A DNA stretch of 64,000 nt from Terriglobia bacterium. Lineage in GTDB: Bacteria; Acidobacteriota; Terriglobia; Acidiferrales; UBA7541. Positions 24,408-32,990 of this stretch are shown here, in pieces. The stretch spans positions 1,056,001 to 1,120,000 of the forward strand of contig OY968796.1 in NCBI GenBank assembly GCA_963695545.1, written 5' to 3'. How positions within the stretch are numbered: position 1 is the first letter of the stretch; every line of letters begins with the position of its first letter. Made by a program: the position numbers and the translations under genes. The notes below the pieces were generated by a model, which was not told the origin of the DNA, made no database searches, and was given only the letters and a program-made list of their open reading frames with translations.

Positions 24408-26342
<1,935 letters not shown>

Positions 26343-26576
26343 GGCTTTCCTCGCCTGCGGGGAGAAGAGAACTATAGTCCGCCCAAGCCCGCGACAACCC
26401 CGCGCCCTGCTTCGGGCGTCTTCCCAATATAAAACAAATCTACACGCACGCCACGACTTCGTGCCTGCCCGTAGCCTGCTAGATACTTAGATGCGCCAAC
26501 CCGCAAGAGGTCACCCGCATCCGGTTGAACCGAGACGTGAGACGAGCCGCGGAAATCGCGGTCGTATCCCTCGGCG

Positions 26577-28109
26577 TCACAACAACTCCTCCTCGATCAC
26601 CACCCCAACTTCGGTCCCTGCCGCCGCGGCGAATTCCGCTGCCACCGGAAACCCCCGCGCCCAAACAATCGCGCCGGCACTGGTAAGCACCGGCCAGCCT
26701 GCGCGATCGCGTCGTGAAATGCGCGACTCGAGCAGCAGCCGTTTCAACTTGCGATTATGCCGCCGCCCGGAAGGACGAAACGTATCACCCGGAAGCCAGC
26801 TCCTCACCACCAGCGGAGAGCGCAACCGATCCCGGTCGAGTGCAATCTGCCCAACTCTAGTTTCGCCCGTGGCTCGCGGCCAGTCAATCAATTTGAGCCG
26901 GAGTCGCCGGCCGATTTCGGGGACCGCGACCTCGGCCGATTGCGCGCCTTCAATTTGAACCGGATACTCGAAACGCGAGGCTTCGCGAGATGCGGCCGCG
27001 GCCCGCGACTCGGTGCTGTCCGCGGGCACCGCGAAAAAGCGGACCATGTCAAAATTGCGCTCCACGCGCACGCCCGGCAGGTGTGTTTCTGCGCCGCTCG
27101 GCGATCTCTCTTGCTGGCCCGCGCCATCCGAGTGAGAACTTCTCGCGAGGCGCAGCACCTGATCGGTGTGGCGTGCCGTGAGTCCCATGCGATCACCGCG
27201 CAATTCTTGATAAATCCGCCGCACCAAGCGCCGCGAAAATGCCGCGGAGGCGAAAGCGGCGCCGACGCCGGGGGCGGCGCCCGGAGCGGCGCCCGGAATC
27301 GCAAAACCGGCTGGCTCGAGCAAGTCGGCCGCGCGAATCGAGATCGTGCCCGAAGCTTCGCGCTGCGTCTTGCTTTGAAACGCTGCGGCAACCCACGAAT
27401 CCCAGAACGCTTCTTCGTCTGCCGCCAGCGACGCGAGCCGGCACAACTGCGCCACCATCTGCGGCTCGAAATCTTTTTCGAGAAACGGCAGCAGCCGATG
27501 CCGGATGCGCGCGCGCAGGCGCGTGGTGTCTTCGTTCGTCGAATCCTCGCGCCACGGTTGCCCTGCGGTCACCAAGTACTCGCGCAATTCACGCCGGCGA
27601 ATTTCAAGCAGAGGCCGGACGATCGTCCCAAAGACGGGATGAATCCCCGCAAGTCCGGTCAGTCCCGTGCCGCGCACCAGATGCGCCAGCACGGTTTCAG
27701 CCTGATCGTCGGCCGTGTGCGCAACAGCCACACGTGTCGCGCGGCCTTGCGCGACGACTTGATCGAAAAATTGATAGCGCAGCCTGCGCGCGGCGTCTTC
27801 GAGATTCCAGCTTTTCTGGCGCGCGACCCCGCGCACATCCTGCGCGCTTACTTCACAAGCCGCGCCGAGTGCCGCCGCCAATTCTTCGACAAAACGCTGA
27901 TCGGCATCCGCGTCGGCGCCGCGAAGCTGGTGATTGAAATGCAAAACCAGAAGACCAATGCCCAGCCGGTCGCGCAATTCCAGCAAAATCCGCAACAGCG
28001 CGACCGAATCGGCGCCGCCGGAAACGGCAACGCCCAACGTATCGCCGGCGCGCACCATCCGCTGCCGCGAAACGCTATCGAGAATCCGCGATTGAATTGA
28101 GGATTGCAT
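26577..28109 (-). CDS. tilS: tRNA(Ile)-lysidine synthetase
   Basis: AVSGGADS PP-loop, AHTADDQAETVL, RPLL, EDSTN, C-terminal TilS domain; probable start ATG 28109. Confidence 0.95.
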   Translation of the reverse strand: MQSSIQSRILDSVSRQRMVRAGDTLGVAVSGGADSVALLRILLELRDRLGIGLLVLHFNHQLRGADADADQRFVEELAAALGAACEVSAQDVRGVARQKSWNLEDAARRLRYQFFDQVVAQGRATRVAVAHTADDQAETVLAHLVRGTGLTGLAGIHPVFGTIVRPLLEIRRRELREYLVTAGQPWREDSTNEDTTRLRARIRHRLLPFLEKDFEPQMVAQLCRLASLAADEEAFWDSWVAAAFQSKTQREASGTISIRAADLLEPAGFAIPGAAPGAAPGVGAAFASAAFSRRLVRRIYQELRGDRMGLTARHTDQVLRLARSSHSDGAGQQERSPSGAETHLPGVRVERNFDMVRFFAVPADSTESRAAAASREASRFEYPVQIEGAQSAEVAVPEIGRRLRLKLIDWPRATGETRVGQIALDRDRLRSPLVVRSWLPGDTFRPSGRRHNRKLKRLLLESRISRRDRAGWPVLTSAGAIVWARGFPVAAEFAAAAGTEVGVVIEEELL

Positions 28110-28252
28110 CGGATAGACCCCGCGGCTCGCCCGCCAAATCGGGTCGTACGTATCGTAGCAGCCGGAGCGCTGCACTCACAATTTTAGGAAGGCAAGCGGA
28201 GGGATAAGCGCTTCATCTTTCCGCAAAAAACGGTCCTGAGAAAATGACGGAG

Positions 28253-28660
28253 CTACCTCTTTGGAATCTGACCGCTCATCAACGCGCGGCTCGAAGCAAT
28301 CCGATGATCCAGCGCCACGGCCGCAAAGTAAGCGCATCCGCCGCGTTCGCCCTCGAGCCAATCCGCAAAGCCGCGCGACGTCCATCCCAGCGAAGTACGC
28401 ACGCCGCCCAAAAACGCGTAGTAGAGGCGAACTGGAGCCAGCGCCGGACCGCTGCCGGCCAGCACCGGGCACAGGCGCATCAGTTGCAGCACGCGGCCGA
28501 ACTCGCCTCCGCTGACATTCCGCACGGTGAAACCCGTGACCGCTCGCGCTTGTCCCGATAGCTCCAGATCCCGCGATGCGCGAACCAACGCGTGGCAGTA
28601 GCAGACGAAAAACTGCAAGAGCGCGGTTACCGAGATCACGAGAATCAGAAAGTCCATCAT
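28253..28660 (-). CDS. Hypothetical membrane-anchored protein (135 aa), third gene of the peptide/7TM operon
   Basis: ATG 28660 overlaps the upstream TGA (ATGA); N-terminal hydrophobic helix DFLILVISVTALLQFFVCYC. Confidence 0.75.
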   Translation of the reverse strand: MMDFLILVISVTALLQFFVCYCHALVRASRDLELSGQARAVTGFTVRNVSGGEFGRVLQLMRLCPVLAGSGPALAPVRLYYAFLGGVRTSLGWTSRGFADWLEGERGGCAYFAAVALDHRIASSRALMSGQIPKR

Positions 28661-29376
28661 CGGTTCGACATCGGATCCGAAATCGGACCGGAAGCCGCGA
28701 CGCTGGCCACAGCCAGTCGCGCATCCTCGCCGACTTGCGAATAGGTGTAGGCCCACGCGGCGGGCAGGCAAATTCCCAGAATTGGCGGCATGTATTGCCA
28801 GAGTGTGATGCGTGGATAGAGATTGCACAGCGCATACGTCGCGGCAAATGCGCTGAAATAGACGCCGAGCGAAAGCACGAACTGAATCAGCCGAGTGCGC
28901 GTCTCGCGAAGCTTCATCACCGCGCCCCACAGAACGTAGGTGAGCACCAGACCCACGAAATAAAGATTCTGCGAAAGCTCCACCACAAACAGCGTCAACA
29001 TCTTGCCGTGCGACGCTGCCACAATCTTCAGCGAGACTCCCGCGGTGGCCAGCAGGATGAGCATCGCTCCTGCTCGAACGTATTTTCCCAGGCCCAGTTC
29101 AGCGAAAACGTGCGTGTACAAACCCATCAGCACGAAGAAGAGAAAGATTGACAACAGTACGTCGGAATAGAAGTAGAAATAAAAGTATTGGTGGGAATTG
29201 TAGCCGTGAGTTTTCAGGATGCCGTAGCTGACAATCGTGAAAACACCCGCTGTCACGATGTACAGATTGAGGGTGAAATATTTGAAAAAGGACTTGGAGC
29301 GGATTGCGCACACCAGTGCGAGAGCATCCATAAGGACGCTTGCAGCCCATAACACGTAATCAGCCGGACTCAGCAA
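28657..29376 (-). CDS. Predicted 7-TM integral membrane protein (239 aa)
   Basis: Seven hydrophobic segments with short loops; rich in Tyr, Phe and Trp; TTG start after GAAAGG. Confidence 0.8.
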   Translation of the reverse strand: MLSPADYVLWAASVLMDALALVCAIRSKSFFKYFTLNLYIVTAGVFTIVSYGILKTHGYNSHQYFYFYFYSDVLLSIFLFFVLMGLYTHVFAELGLGKYVRAGAMLILLATAGVSLKIVAASHGKMLTLFVVELSQNLYFVGLVLTYVLWGAVMKLRETRTRLIQFVLSLGVYFSAFAATYALCNLYPRITLWQYMPPILGICLPAAWAYTYSQVGEDARLAVASVAASGPISDPMSNR

Positions 29377-29403
29377 CCATGCCTTTCAGCAGCTGAGTCC
29401 GAC

Positions 29404-29430
29404 AAACTAAGGCCAACGAGGCCTTAGTTT
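29404..29430 (-). terminator. Hairpin (weak terminator or mRNA stabiliser) between precursor and 7TM gene
   Basis: Perfect 11-bp stem AAACTAAGGCC / GGCCTTAGTTT with a 5-nt loop, 7 nt after the precursor stop. Confidence 0.65.
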
Positions 29431-29437
29431 TTCAGCT

Positions 29438-29776
29438 TCAGCTCACCACCGCGGGCGGTGGTAGAGGCGGAACCGGCCCACCGATATTAGCGGTGAGTAC
29501 GCTTCCCCGGGCCGGCGGCGGTAGTGGCGGAACTGGCCCACCGATATTAGCGGTGAGTACGTTCGCCCTTACCGGTGGTGGTAGCGGCGGAACTGGCCCA
29601 CCGATGTTAGCGGTGAGCACGTTCGCCCTGGCCGGCGGTGGCAACGGCGGAACTGGCCCGCCGATGTTAGCAACGAGTGCGCTCGTGCCGGCATGATGCG
29701 CCGTCACGACCCCACCCATGGCTCCCGTAAGTACCAACAACGTTGCTACTACGACTACTGCGAGGTACTTGGGCAT
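29438..29776 (-). CDS. Secreted multi-core peptide precursor (112 aa; 4 x ANIGGPVPPLPPP)
   Basis: GGAGG RBS before ATG 29776; signal-peptide-like N-terminus; repeat cores differ only at synonymous positions, which supports this reading frame. Confidence 0.85.
   Translation of the reverse strand: MPKYLAVVVVATLLVLTGAMGGVVTAHHAGTSALVANIGGPVPPLPPPARANVLTANIGGPVPPLPPPVRANVLTANIGGPVPPLPPPARGSVLTANIGGPVPPLPPPAVVS
29453..29671 (-). repeat. 60-nt coding tandem repeat, four copies
   Basis: Cores at 29633-29671, 29573-29611, 29513-29551 and 29453-29491. Confidence 0.95.
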
Positions 29777-30150
29777 ATAGCCCTCCGAGAGAGACAACAA
29801 CGGAGGGACTATACACCGAACTGTGCCAGAATGGTACTAAAGTACTATTTTTTCTTCGTACGCGAACACCCCCGGCTTTGGCCGTCCCGGCGGGGTCTAG
29901 CCCGCCAAACCGGCCAATTGCCTGGAAATGTCCCGCTGTCAGGGTAAGAACACGGACCATCGCGAACAATAGTACGGAAGTTCTAATGGGCTAACGGATT
30001 GGAATCTCGTGACGCAGCACCTTCCTCGAAGCTGTGCCGTTGCGGCACAGAGCGCCCGCGGCGCAGCCTCCGCTGGCTCGACGAGCGTCTTCCGAACTCC
30101 GCGTGCCGCGCTACGCGGTGTTATCCGAGCTGTGCCCGGCTTTCGCGCGC

Positions 30151-30180
30151 TTGACAGTCACGGAAGCGCATCCGTACCAT
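30151..30180 (+). promoter_or_regulatory. Putative sigma70 promoter for the tRNA
   Basis: TTGACA-18 nt-TACCAT about 20 nt upstream of the tRNA. Confidence 0.65.
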
Positions 30181-30201
30181 GCATGTCGAAGTCCCGCAAA
30201 T

Positions 30202-30276
30202 GCCGGCGTAGCTCAGGGGTAGAGCGAGGGTCTCATAATCCCTAGGTCGTGGGTTCGAGTCCCACCACCGGCACCA
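30202..30276 (+). tRNA. tRNA with CAT anticodon, most likely elongator tRNA-Met
   Basis: Cloverleaf: GCTC/GAGC D-stem, CTCATAA anticodon loop, GTGGG-TTCGAGT-CCCAC T arm, encoded CCA. G1-C72 argues against initiator tRNA. Confidence 0.93.
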
Positions 30277-30286
30277 TTCTTGCTTT

Positions 30287-31270
30287 CTATCCCGGATACC
30301 AGATCTTGCGCTCGTCGCCCGCGACGCGTTGATAGGTCCAAGCTTCTTCGATGAGTCGCGGCAATTCGTAGCGCGGTCTCCAGCCCAGCAGAAATTTCGC
30401 CTTGGTATTGTCCAGCCACGTTGAGTGATAAAGAGTGCTGATCTCAACCGCCGGCAATCCACGTGTCCCGCGCAGATAGTCCGCCACGTCTTTGTAATCC
30501 ACCGGCTCATTCGTACAGATGTTGAACGTTTGCTGGCGGGCCTTCGGATTATCGACGGCCGCGATGATGGCCTCCACCAGGTCGGTTACGTGCACAAAAT
30601 TGCGCTTCACGGGCTTTCCATCCGGATCAAGCATCAGCGGCACCGCGCCGCTTTTCACATACGCATCGGCGCGCTCCGCTCCCACCAAATCCCTCCAGCG
30701 CGGCCCGCCGAAAACGTCTTCGCCAAACGAGAGTGAATATTTGAAATCGTCCTTCTCCATGATCCATGGAGCACGCAGGCAACATCCCGTTAGATCGTAT
30801 TGCACGTAATACTGCTCCAGCATGACCTCTTCGAGGACCTTCGATAGCGCGTAACAACCGGGATAGGCGGTGTGCTTTTGCTCCTCAGTCACCGGGATCG
30901 GGTGCGCGTAAAAAAAATGTCCAACCGCTCCATCCCCGCCAATCAGTATGAACTGCTCAAAAGTTTGGCTAACGCGGCATTCCTCGAGCAACCAGAACAA
31001 ACCCTTGACCGTTACGTCGATCACCTCGTCGGGGGTCTCCTTGCAAGTGGCGCAATGCAGCACATGAGTCACGCCCTGCATGGCTTCGCGGACCACTTCG
31101 CGATCGGCGATGCTGCCTCGCACAATTTCCAGGCGCTCGTGCGCACCAAGCGCCCGGTTGTGGCACAGCGCTCGAACACGCGCGTCCCGCCAATCGTCGG
31201 ACTCGAGGATCCGCTTGATGGCATGCGATCCCACTTTGCCTGTTGCGCCGGTGACAAGAAGGCGTTTCAT
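30287..31270 (-). CDS. NAD-dependent epimerase/dehydratase (extended SDR)
   Basis: LVTGATGKVG, YALSK, RNFVHVTDL. Confidence 0.9.
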   Translation of the reverse strand: MKRLLVTGATGKVGSHAIKRILESDDWRDARVRALCHNRALGAHERLEIVRGSIADREVVREAMQGVTHVLHCATCKETPDEVIDVTVKGLFWLLEECRVSQTFEQFILIGGDGAVGHFFYAHPIPVTEEQKHTAYPGCYALSKVLEEVMLEQYYVQYDLTGCCLRAPWIMEKDDFKYSLSFGEDVFGGPRWRDLVGAERADAYVKSGAVPLMLDPDGKPVKRNFVHVTDLVEAIIAAVDNPKARQQTFNICTNEPVDYKDVADYLRGTRGLPAVEISTLYHSTWLDNTKAKFLLGWRPRYELPRLIEEAWTYQRVAGDERKIWYPG

Positions 31271-31421
31271 AGGTCTGGACAGTCTACACTTGTTTCGGAG
31301 AGCCCATCGTCATCCTCATTTTTGTCCCGTTTCACTCGCTCCGTTCGCGTCAGCAACGGTTACAATATTTAGCGCGTTGCGCGCTCACGCAGTTTCCAAA
31401 TCGAATCGGAGGTTCATCGAC

Positions 31422-32990
31422 GTGCTGCCCAGCCGGCCGGTCCTCATATCGTGCTGCGTCATCTTATATTTTGCGTTTTTCACTCCGTTCGAGACGGTGC
31501 GCGCCGAGGTAAAGCCCGCGGCGCTTTTCAGCGATCACATGGTGCTTCAAAGCGGCATGCGCGTACCCATCTGGGGAACCGCGGGTCCCGGCGAAAAAGT
31601 CACCGTGACTTTCGAGAACCAAAAAAAATCCGTGATCGCCGGCGCCGACGGTAAATGGATGGTGCGCCTCTCCAAGCTCACCGCCGGCGGCCCCTTCGAG
31701 ATGACCATTGCCGGCGACAATACCATCACCGTGAAGGATATTCTGGTCGGCGAAGTGTGGCTTGCTTCCGGGCAATCGAACATGGCGTTCACCGTCTCGA
31801 AGCAGCACGCGTCTTACGCCGGCCTGCTCAACGAGGATCAGGAGATCGCCGCAGCCAACTATCCGCAAATTCGCATGTTCACCGGCAAAACGGCAAAGGA
31901 CTACGAACCTCAGTCCGAGATCGAAGGCCAATGGCTGGTGTGCAGTCCGGAAACTGTCGGCGATTTTTCCGCCGTCGGCTATTTATTCGCGCGCGACTTA
32001 CAAAAAGTGCTCGACGCGCCCGTCGGAATCGTCACCGAAGCCTACGGCGCGAGCACCGCCGAATCGTGGATCCGCCGAGACGCCATCGCTTCCGATCCCT
32101 TGCTCAGGCCCATGCTCGAAAAGTTCGACGCGCTCGAGGAGTTCTATCGCGACAATCCAAATGCCACCACCGCTCAAGCGCCGCCCGCGCCGCAAACCCT
32201 CAACGCTCGCCCCGGCGCTCCGGGGCCTTTGCGCGATCCCGTCCAGGACCAGCATGAGCCCACGGTTCTGTTCAACGGCATGATTAATCCTGTAATCCCG
32301 TACGCGATTCGCGGCGTGATTTGGTATCAGGGCGAATCCATCGTCGGCGGCGAATCCGGTGTCACGCTCTATGCGCACGTCATGGATACGCTGGTCACGG
32401 ACTGGCGCAAACTTTGGGGCGAAGGTAATTTCCCGTTCTATGTTGTGCAGCTTGCCGCGCTCAAGAACGTCAGCAACAATCCCGTAGTGCGCGAAGCGCA
32501 AGCGGCGGTTCTCTCGCTGCCGAACACGGGGATGGCCGTCACTATTGATATCGGCGATCCCGACAACGTCCATCCCAAAAATAAAGAACCGCTCGGCGAC
32601 CGCCTCTCTCGCATCGCACTGGCCAAAACCTACGGCCGCGAGATTGAATATTCCGGCCCCGTCTACGAATCAATGACCGTGGAAGCCAACGCCATCCGCG
32701 TTAAATTTTCCCACGTGGACGGCGGCCTGGTCGCCAAAGATGGACCGCTGAAGTGGTTTCAAATTGCCGGCGCCGATCAGAAATTCGTGGACGCCGAAGC
32801 CACCATCGACGGCGACACCGTCGTCGTGCACAGCCCCGAAGTCACCGCCCCCGTCGCCGTTCGCTACGCGTGGGACAATTACCCCGAAGGCTGCAACCTC
32901 TACAACGCCGCCGGCCTGCCCGCCGCGCCGTTCCGCAGCGATCAGTGGGACGCCCTCAGCAAAATCGCCCAGGAATTCACAGGCAAATAA
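31422..32990 (+). CDS. Sialate O-acetylesterase (SASA family)
   Basis: LFSDHMVLQ, GEVWLASGQSNM, GVIWYQGES, DNVHPKNK, LYNAAGLPAAPFR; GTG 31422 follows GGAGG. Confidence 0.92.
   Translation: MLPSRPVLISCCVILYFAFFTPFETVRAEVKPAALFSDHMVLQSGMRVPIWGTAGPGEKVTVTFENQKKSVIAGADGKWMVRLSKLTAGGPFEMTIAGDNTITVKDILVGEVWLASGQSNMAFTVSKQHASYAGLLNEDQEIAAANYPQIRMFTGKTAKDYEPQSEIEGQWLVCSPETVGDFSAVGYLFARDLQKVLDAPVGIVTEAYGASTAESWIRRDAIASDPLLRPMLEKFDALEEFYRDNPNATTAQAPPAPQTLNARPGAPGPLRDPVQDQHEPTVLFNGMINPVIPYAIRGVIWYQGESIVGGESGVTLYAHVMDTLVTDWRKLWGEGNFPFYVVQLAALKNVSNNPVVREAQAAVLSLPNTGMAVTIDIGDPDNVHPKNKEPLGDRLSRIALAKTYGREIEYSGPVYESMTVEANAIRVKFSHVDGGLVAKDGPLKWFQIAGADQKFVDAEATIDGDTVVVHSPEVTAPVAVRYAWDNYPEGCNLYNAAGLPAAPFRSDQWDALSKIAQEFTGK

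Follow-up and report, generated by a model that had tools for sequence, protein, structure and literature searches.

To our knowledge, bacterial peptide signalling makes use of either histidine kinases or cytoplasmic RRNPP receptors. The Phr peptides of Bacillus and the arbitrium peptide AimP are exported by the Sec pathway as single-core pro-peptides and then taken up again to reach an RRNPP/TPR receptor in the cytoplasm. The alpha-factor precursor of yeast (MFalpha1) consists of a signal followed by tandem identical short cores in variable copy number, and its receptor, Ste2, is a seven-helix protein with the fold of a G protein-coupled receptor (GPCR). In the prokaryotic SRII/HtrII system, a seven-transmembrane (7TM) light sensor works with a helical transducer, a separate protein anchored in the membrane and encoded by a neighbouring gene. 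The locus described here is a set of three genes (g1, g2 and g3) located in a 64,000-nucleotide stretch of DNA from a Terriglobia bacterium (assembly GCA_963695545.1, contig OY968796.1, positions 1,056,001 to 1,120,000), which is called the window below and supplies all the coordinates. It combines a precursor-like protein with repeated proline-rich cores, a seven-helix membrane protein and a bitopic protein with a single transmembrane (TM) helix. Its nearest analogue in logic is alpha-factor/Ste2 and its nearest prokaryotic analogue in architecture is SRII/HtrII, but tests of sequence family, of the retinal lysine and of HAMP and MCP domains all fail, and the trio is, thus, a member of neither system. 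No description of a free-standing protein with a GPCR or rhodopsin fold linked to a multi-copy secreted peptide was found in the literature, and the trio is rated as a categorically new gene module.

The resemblance to the yeast system is one of design. The precursor has the same order of a signal, here a putative one, and tandem identical cores in variable number, in many g1 genes every core is followed by a basic residue, and the model of the seven-helix g2 product is suggestive of the GPCR-type fold. Unlike alpha-factor/Ste2, the locus is bacterial, and precursor and g2 lie in one operon-like unit; g1 has no dibasic Kex2 sites (the spacers in the window are ARANVLT-like), there is no G protein, a one-TM protein (g3) being found in its place, and no sequence relationship was found with Pfam or the PDB. 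Fungal repeat proteins processed by Kex2 appear to provide a broader analogue of the logic of g1 (PMC7329392). The trio shares with SRII/HtrII a prokaryotic 7TM protein, of what may be the same fold class, and a separate helical partner, membrane-anchored and encoded next to it, but g2 lacks the lysine of helix 7, g3 has a single TM helix, not two, and neither a HAMP nor an MCP domain (Pfam, NCBIfam), and the presumed input of g2 is a peptide rather than light. As for Phr and AimP, a small gene with a candidate Sec-type signal and a short C-terminal peptide lies beside a putative sensor gene; unlike them, g1 has one to six cores and a 7TM partner in the membrane, and no RRNPP, Opp or TPR family was found in g2, g3 or the flanking genes (Pfam, NCBIfam).

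The g1 gene (29438-29776, minus strand, like the rest of the trio) is an open reading frame (ORF) whose translation is a precursor-like protein of 112 residues, with an ATG 5 nt past a GGAGGG Shine-Dalgarno sequence. The protein begins with MPK and a 23-residue uncharged hydrophobic run carrying a small-residue G-A-M-G motif (approximately residues 1-27, 29696-29776). Four identical 13-residue cores, ANIGGPVPPLPPP, follow at residues 36-48 (29633-29671), 56-68 (29573-29611), 76-88 (29513-29551) and 96-108 (29453-29491), separated by 7-residue spacers; Tandem Repeats Finder reports the array at 29454-29671 with a 60-nt period, 3.6 copies and 88% matches. An earlier note, made from the sequence alone, had described three co-oriented genes between tilS and a tRNA gene, the first with a signal-like N-terminus and four identical proline-rich cores. 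This description and all its coordinates stand, and the sequence that it gave for the core, NIGGPVPPLPPP, sits within ANIGGPVPPLPPP.

Homologues of g2 were collected at 105 loci, 26 from related genomes and 79 from public genome contigs, with some genomes occurring in both sets; these loci yielded 86 g1 genes distinct in DNA. In all 86, K/R is followed by an uncharged run with a median length of 18 residues, and the family consensus of this region is MxKWLxVVxLVLLVLxGAMGL. A crude -3/-1 rule, which is not discriminating, finds a cleavage site in 86/86. Judging from its sequence, the g1 N-terminus would act as a Sec signal peptide or else as a signal anchor. Small-residue motifs like A-x-A come after the run, and many of the genes end right at an aromatic residue or one K/R later. 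The part of the protein following the run has a median net charge of about +0.4 per 10 residues, and the window core ANIGGPVPPLPPP contains no charged residue. The number of core copies ranges from one (17 genes) through two (9), three (34), four (15) and five (8) to six (3 genes). Cores share the pattern G-x-P-x-P-P-x-P with W, Y or F as the next residue; the genus of the window has P, H or R at this final position instead, and NGGAPVPPTPWK is an example of a core foreign to the window.

The nucleotide sequences of the cores indicate that each copy is held under selection. Nine of the 39 nucleotide columns vary among the four cores of the window, eight of them third positions and one a TTG/CTA leucine switch, and all these changes are synonymous; random changes at nine sites would all be synonymous with a simulated P of about 1e-5. 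The spacers between the cores differ by 1-3 amino acids. The 69 genes with more than one copy have 2388 nucleotide columns in their cores, of which 511 vary, 497 of them at third codon positions; the core was defined in this set as the longest identical peptide, so the all-synonymous result holds by construction, and the informative point is the amount of silent change inside identical peptides of 8-16 residues. The copies within a gene are identical in protein and near-saturated at synonymous sites. Between species, core residues do change: on a g2 tree with 57 tips, the final core residue changed 12 times, and the residues at two of the x positions changed 18 and 21 times. The copies keep positional orthology between species. 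Comparison of two loci whose g2 is 98% identical gives 9, 10, 10 and 8 matches out of 11 third positions on the diagonal, versus 2-7 off it.

Three loci (L087, L077 and L014) have the same core serine encoded by TCN in some copies and by AGY in others within one gene. Gene conversion would erase such differences, and their survival is most simply read as each copy having been driven separately to the same new residue; the pattern is a rare and clear footprint of parallel replacement in tandem repeats. The simplest reading of these sequences is parallel substitution in every core copy, as expected if all the copies fit one partner. Core residues switch in all copies at once between species, and the selected object is, therefore, the peptide; most simply, the partner that it must fit would be encoded elsewhere in the genome.

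The g2 gene (28657-29376) starts at a TTG codon and encodes a protein of 239 residues. Its AlphaFold2 model, built from a 37-sequence alignment (predicted local distance difference test score, pLDDT, 84.6; predicted TM-score, pTM, 0.79), has seven long helices at residues 4-26, 34-57, 62-94, 98-120, 126-155, 161-186 and 196-214, in agreement with the seven hydrophobic segments counted in the earlier note. According to the positive-inside rule, the N-terminus would lie outside and the C-terminus inside, with the RSKSFFK and KLRETRTR loops on alternate sides of the membrane. The comparison with Foldseek that had been proposed for this protein returned best rows (E 0.02-0.2) that are mostly GPCRs and microbial rhodopsins, including SRII/HtrII (4gyc, 5jje), with the zinc transporter ZnT1 at rank 5. 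VIA-align, which is independent of Foldseek, gave 50/50 top rows that are GPCRs (classes A, B, C, F, T and adhesion), the GPCR-like domain of LYCHOS, microbial rhodopsins and heliorhodopsins, or a designed GPCR-like fold, with no transporter or enzyme among these 50 (Z 10.6-14.5, root-mean-square deviation 3.5-5.6 Å, 170-214 residues aligned); unrelated helical bundles commonly reach Z values of about 13. The likeness of the g2 model to GPCRs and rhodopsins is, then, suggestive, and concerns the fold class rather than the family. The protein has no match to the curated 7TM receptor families (7tm_1-3, 7TMR-DISM, Dicty_CAR and others; Pfam and NCBIfam, E<=1). There is no lysine in helix 7 and no Bac_rhodopsin match in Pfam, and the lack of this lysine means that g2 is not a retinal protein in the manner of rhodopsins.

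The residues G58, S61, Y68, N137, F140, G142, L149, W150, G171 and A182 are invariant in g2. A cluster of invariant or near-invariant residues (G58, S61, Y64, Y66, Y68, Q136, N137, Y139, F140, Y181 and P188) is found in helices 3, 5 and 6, in their outer halves, and in the adjoining loops, and a second conserved cluster, formed by the RETRTR loop, E217 and R220, lies on what is probably the cytoplasmic side. Proline-rich ligands usually bind to tyrosine-rich, outward-facing pockets, as with the SH3, WW and EVH1 domains. Invariant acidic, histidine and cysteine residues are all missing from g2, which speaks against catalysis.

None of the three proteins has a Pfam or NCBIfam match at E<=1, the anti-phage defence models of PADLOC gave no match for them at E<=1, and family profiles of g2 and g3 matched no PDB sequence at E<=10; ESM Atlas returned unnamed Acidobacteriota clusters only. 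No characterized transporter or enzyme is, thus, matched by g2 in these collections, a match of that kind being one of the outcomes that the earlier note had named as refuting its proposal. A 90%-clustered collection contains 3484 g2 homologues at E<=0.001, the named ones being hypothetical proteins and the named records Acidobacteria. A g2 profile run against 1.84 billion representatives found 585 clusters (50% identity) at E<=0.001, 287 at 1e-10 and 74 at 1e-30. Many rows are fragments; the full-length matches almost all stand alone, at about 220-260 residues, and no fused form of at least 430 residues was found, which is weak evidence by the search tool's own note. One protein of 426 residues, P0208, carries at its N-terminus a zf-HC2 anti-sigma domain (26.8 bits against a cut-off of 22.2) with two HxxxCxxC motifs and an extra TM helix, followed by a g2-type 7TM region; no relatives with this architecture were found, and either the fusion is genuine or two genes were merged in gene calling. 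The presence of ftsH in the neighbourhood makes a BI-1/YccA-like modulator of FtsH a conceivable identity for g2, but Pfam gave no match and no such fold is among the VIA rows listed.

The g3 gene (28253-28660) is coupled to g2, as the earlier note had it, by an ATGA overlap between its ATG (28660-28658) and the g2 TGA (28659-28657). Its product, a bitopic protein of 135 residues, is modelled by AlphaFold2 (pLDDT 89.7) as an N-terminal helix (2-30) and four further helices, which corresponds to the single N-terminal TM helix and soluble domain described before. There are no basic residues before the TM helix and R/K residues follow it, a charge pattern that would probably place the helical domain in the cytoplasm. 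The fold could not be named: the best Foldseek E-value is 0.74 and VIA reached Z values of up to 7.0, all with generic helical hairpins. Prediction of a complex of g2, g3 and g1 with alignments gave an interface score (ipSAE) of 0.00 in two runs, the mark being 0.32, with an uncertain fold for the partner, and is evidence neither way.

The trio is conserved as a unit. In 98 of the 105 loci, an intact g1-like ORF (co-oriented and small, with a basic start, a hydrophobic run and proline-rich cores) ends 44-89 nt upstream of g2. Homologues of the 7TM gene do, therefore, usually have a peptide ORF upstream, where the earlier note had taken the opposite outcome as a reason to abandon its proposal. 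In four of the other loci (L005, L031, L074 and L090), the 3' part of g1 is present and the gene is cut by the contig end; a fifth (L065) has only 90 nt of upstream DNA, too short to judge, and in L054 (2768-3025) the g1 repeats are out of frame past the signal region, due to either repeat collapse in the assembly or a real frameshift. A second copy of g2 lies right behind g3 in L078 (2387-3681), a tandem duplication of the putative receptor pair. The overlap of g2 and g3 is 4 nt in 73/81 loci and 1 nt in five more.

The g2 gene is present in 35 of 41 genomes related to that of the window (a tally including three unpublished genomes, G013, G007 and G031, that contributed to no other result) and in 25 of the 27 high-quality ones, versus only 9 of 401 genomes sampled across the phylum, making this a family mainly of the window's own order. 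The record titles of the carriers read Candidatus Acidiferrales or Acidoferrales, and Terriglobia, and the window's own genome has one g2 and one g1. The three genes are a conserved, vertically inherited membrane module of one order of Acidobacteriota. Five records carrying the locus (L034, L035, L061, L066 and L080) are titled Saccharimonadales, Verrucomicrobiia, Binatus, Dormiibacterota and Elarobacter; their identity to the query, approximately 52-55%, is the same as that of acidobacterial records, and their bins or labels are probably wrong.

Twelve more distant homologues or paralogues were found, with g2 E-values down to about 1e-5, and seven of them keep an ORF with a signal and proline-rich cores upstream. 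Their cores differ greatly from that of the window: three copies of AAGPWPFPDDSAGGNI in L107, two of DGSAPVPPIPS in L110, GGLPIPPWPP in L111 and DGSPAPPFPPP in L117, the other such ORFs being those of L109, L115 and L116. In L110, L111 and L117, and in the distant orthologues L019 and L116, a helical protein with one TM helix overlaps or abuts the g2 stop codon. Homology between the one-TM proteins of the distant modules and g3 was not detected (hhalign probability 8.5%), the likeness being one of position and architecture only. The architecture is, nevertheless, conserved across a divergence that has erased sequence similarity in two of its three parts. Several g2 paralogues occur in some genomes, such as G006 (L005, L112) and G010 (L108-L111); the latter has at least three modules, with the cores STGLPMPPTPY, DGSAPVPPIPS and GGLPIPPWPP, plus a g2-g3 pair without a peptide gene.

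The g1 sequence is present in RNA libraries. Six RNA contigs from four metatranscriptome runs of one study cover 29351-29871 with zero mismatches, spanning g1, about 95 nt upstream of it and the intergenic region as far as the start of g2. None of the six covers g2 or g3; silence of these two genes cannot be deduced from contigs of this kind, nor can a ranking of expression. The g1 leader (29777-29815) contains a TATAGT -10-like box followed by a hairpin in which CCCTCCG pairs with the Shine-Dalgarno sequence CGGAGGG; one of the RNA contigs runs upstream past the box, which does not, therefore, settle the transcription start. This hairpin has a minimum free energy (MFE) of -18.7 kcal/mol in the window (z -6.8). 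In relatives (L002-L105), CCUCC likewise pairs with the Shine-Dalgarno sequence right after a TATAcT box. GGAG is at least half paired in the MFE structures of 73/73 leaders and fully paired in 43, with a median z of -3.5. An alignment of 47 sequences has 84% of cells paired, versus 40-62% with a slid partner, and 24 compensatory cells, the observed value being reached by 0/500 shuffles. The hairpin has no Rfam match (E<=1 over 26000-32000, where only the tRNA and two chance rows were found) and could serve to switch translation, to sense temperature or to stabilize the 5' end. A near-palindrome, GGTGTnTAcCGTTTAGaCAC, occurs about 78-100 nt upstream of g1 in most relatives (A5 columns ~33-56) and is degenerate in the window (29852-29873), which has lost the second half-site; a regulator may bind to this motif, or it may belong to a leader RNA of greater length, given that an RNA contig begins at about this place.

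The region between g1 and g2 (29377-29437) folds into two stem-loops, the first right after the g1 stop codon and the second spanning the g2 Shine-Dalgarno sequence and TTG. Its MFE in the window is -28.8 kcal/mol (z -3.2), and across 86 loci the signal is modest, with a median z of -1.1 and values below -2 in 22. No U-run follows the stems, and a scan of the gene strand for consensus promoters and terminators from g1 to tilS found no terminator-like site.

In the reading that we tentatively favour, with slightly less than even confidence, the exported multi-copy proline-rich peptide would be the cognate ligand of a GPCR-fold receptor (g2) acting through the coupled bitopic protein g3. This reading draws on the anatomy of the genes, the conservation of the trio, the purifying selection on each core copy and the g1 RNA, all of which are observed. 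Production of g1 would be governed by its own promoter-like box, a strong Shine-Dalgarno sequence and the leader hairpin masking it, and the protein would be exported through Sec by its N-terminal signal. Outside the cytoplasm it would present one to six identical units with the pattern G-x-P-x-P-P-x-P-aromatic, which may be freed as short peptides or act together in one multivalent chain. These units would dock on g2 at its presumed periplasmic face, the location of the cluster of invariant polar and aromatic residues, and g2 would relay the signal to the presumably cytoplasmic helical domain of g3, probably made in a fixed ratio with it. That bacteria have their own GPCR-fold peptide receptor system, in which the exported precursor co-evolves with the seven-helix receptor and a one-TM transducer and each species or paralogous module has a private peptide channel, is a more doubtful proposition; the parallel codon changes in every copy would then be the footprint of ligand-receptor co-evolution. 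Weak leads towards signalling come from the REC-HD-GYP, PAS-GAF-HK-REC or GGDEF genes that adjoin three paralogous modules, and from the single zf-HC2 anti-sigma fusion, P0208.

Several observations weigh against the ligand-receptor reading. Foldseek found nothing for g2 in the PDB at E<=0.001 (best E 0.023), which, together with the Z values common among unrelated bundles, leaves the GPCR fold suggestive only. No recognizable output domain was found in g3 with Pfam, a PDB profile, Foldseek or VIA, and the one-TM proteins of the distant paralogues have no detectable homology to it. Five of the 12 distant homologues (L106, L108, L112, L113 and L114) have no peptide ORF, L113 and L114 being very weak g2 matches, and the zf-HC2 fusion is a singleton on one 1790-nt metagenome contig. 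Contrasting terminal W versus Y/F with A versus V at the first x position (x1) gave just two independent pairs, too few to assess co-variation between the core and g2. For a signal peptide that is cleaved, the hydrophobic run of g1 is long; it also shows unusual sequence conservation and carries G-A-M-G, features equally suited to a signal peptide and to an anchor that stays in the membrane. Export by Sec takes a peptide no further than the periplasm in a diderm, and the locus has no linked outer-membrane exporter or protease; sensing by a cell within its own periplasm is, therefore, better supported than signalling between cells.

The surroundings of the trio in the window are as follows. A tRNA-Met gene (CAT anticodon; 30202-30276, plus strand) lies upstream on the opposite strand, with genes for a NAD-epimerase and a SASA esterase beyond the trio on that far side (Pfam). 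Downstream and co-oriented with the trio are tilS (26577-28175) and ftsH (24408-26342), both identified with Pfam. The longest tilS ORF has a GTG start about 20 codons upstream of the point at which the alignment of homologues begins, and the true start is probably near 28112, leaving about 140 nt between g3 and tilS. Enough sequence was available at 74 loci: 44 have tilS downstream in the same orientation, and in 30 it is not nearby; this linkage is common, not obligatory. No RiPP (ribosomally made and post-translationally modified peptide) enzyme, peptidase-containing ATP-binding cassette (ABC) exporter, kinase or RRNPP family is adjacent (Pfam and NCBIfam on the trio, Pfam on the flanks), as had been remarked before.

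The best surviving alternative, which is nonetheless unlikely, is a stable complex in which the g1 N-terminal helix remains in the membrane and packs on g2, g3 or both, the repeats forming a stiff periplasmic arm that serves as a tethered ligand or as a spacer toward the wall or outer membrane. The complex would have a role in envelope upkeep or sensing, possibly tied to the neighbouring FtsH. Proline-rich periplasmic spacers are known, TonB being an example, and the unusual conservation of the hydrophobic run with its G-A-M-G motif (median length 18 residues, 23 in the window) suits a helix that stays in place, as does the retention of the trio as a unit, with tilS-ftsH co-oriented downstream in 44 of the 74 loci. 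An arm of this kind would, however, be expected to have a conserved length, whereas copy number runs from one to six in the 86 genes and 17 of these have a single copy. The gene ends at an aromatic residue or one K/R later, and the A-x-A-like motifs, look like those of a cleaved pro-peptide; tilS is not nearby in the remaining 30 loci, and the distant paralogues are located elsewhere. A spacer needs no selection for identical copies that switch rapidly between species.

It is very unlikely that g1 acts as an arrest (monitoring) peptide of the SecM, MifM, VemP or ApdA kind. The ribosome would stall at the proline-rich end of g1 until the pull of export freed it, and remodelling of the stem-loops would set the translation of g2-g3 and perhaps of tilS-ftsH. 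The layout is that reported for SecM, MifM, VemP and ApdA/ApdP, an ORF with an export signal and a C-terminal proline motif upstream of a membrane-protein gene with stem-loops between the two: g1 has an N-terminal signal or TM segment, its proline-rich motif lies 0-7 residues from the stop codon in most genes, and the stem-loops begin at the stop codon and span the start of g2. Motifs containing PP slow ribosomes (PMC7897499, PMC10987492). Unlike the genes controlled by such monitors, g2 and g3 are not Sec, YidC or a known localization factor (Pfam, NCBIfam, VIA), and the RAPP, RAPG and RGPP motifs are not present in the g1 of the window. Up to six copies of the motif are each under selection, yet the last alone could reach the intergenic RNA, the structure of which is weak across the family (median z -1.1; 22/86 below -2). 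The main text of a survey of arrest peptides mentions neither Acidobacteria nor ftsH nor the term proline-rich, although its supplements could list candidates (PMC10987492).

Similarly improbable is a peptide product, antimicrobial or RiPP-like, with its own machinery or immunity, g2 and g3 processing, exporting or protecting against it in the way that AgrB handles AgrD or that immunity proteins accompany bacteriocins. Insect antimicrobials of the apidaecin type come from multi-copy precursors and are strongly cationic. Like them, g1 has short proline-rich units repeated in one secreted-type precursor, and precursors that contain several identical cores are typical of such products, including cyanobactins and, it appears, the fungal Kex2-processed repeat proteins (PMC7329392). 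The hairpin following the precursor gene and the recovery of g1 alone among the RNA contigs, which does not prove g2 and g3 to be silent, are also compatible with such a product. No modifying enzyme, protease or ABC exporter was found in or beside the locus (Pfam, NCBIfam), though, g2 has no invariant acidic, histidine or cysteine residue for catalysis, and PADLOC was empty. The main alternative put forward in the earlier note, a proline-rich antimicrobial peptide with immunity genes, looks less likely now, given that g1 past its hydrophobic run is nearly uncharged (median about +0.4 per 10 residues), unlike the cationic peptides of this type, and linked on the chromosome to membrane proteins in a single-copy, syntenic core locus (35/41 genomes; 25/27 of high quality) that is not patchy like bacteriocin loci.

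Whatever its function, the trio defines three new protein families and provides a clean evolutionary signal, identical peptide copies kept by parallel substitutions. It is directly testable, with synthetic peptides and a small operon. Its hosts are abundant soil Acidobacteria, known almost only from metagenomes, in which most conserved genes have no assigned function. If the receptor reading is true, the module would represent a new class of bacterial signal system, and would bear on the long-standing question of the origin of GPCR-type ligand receptors.

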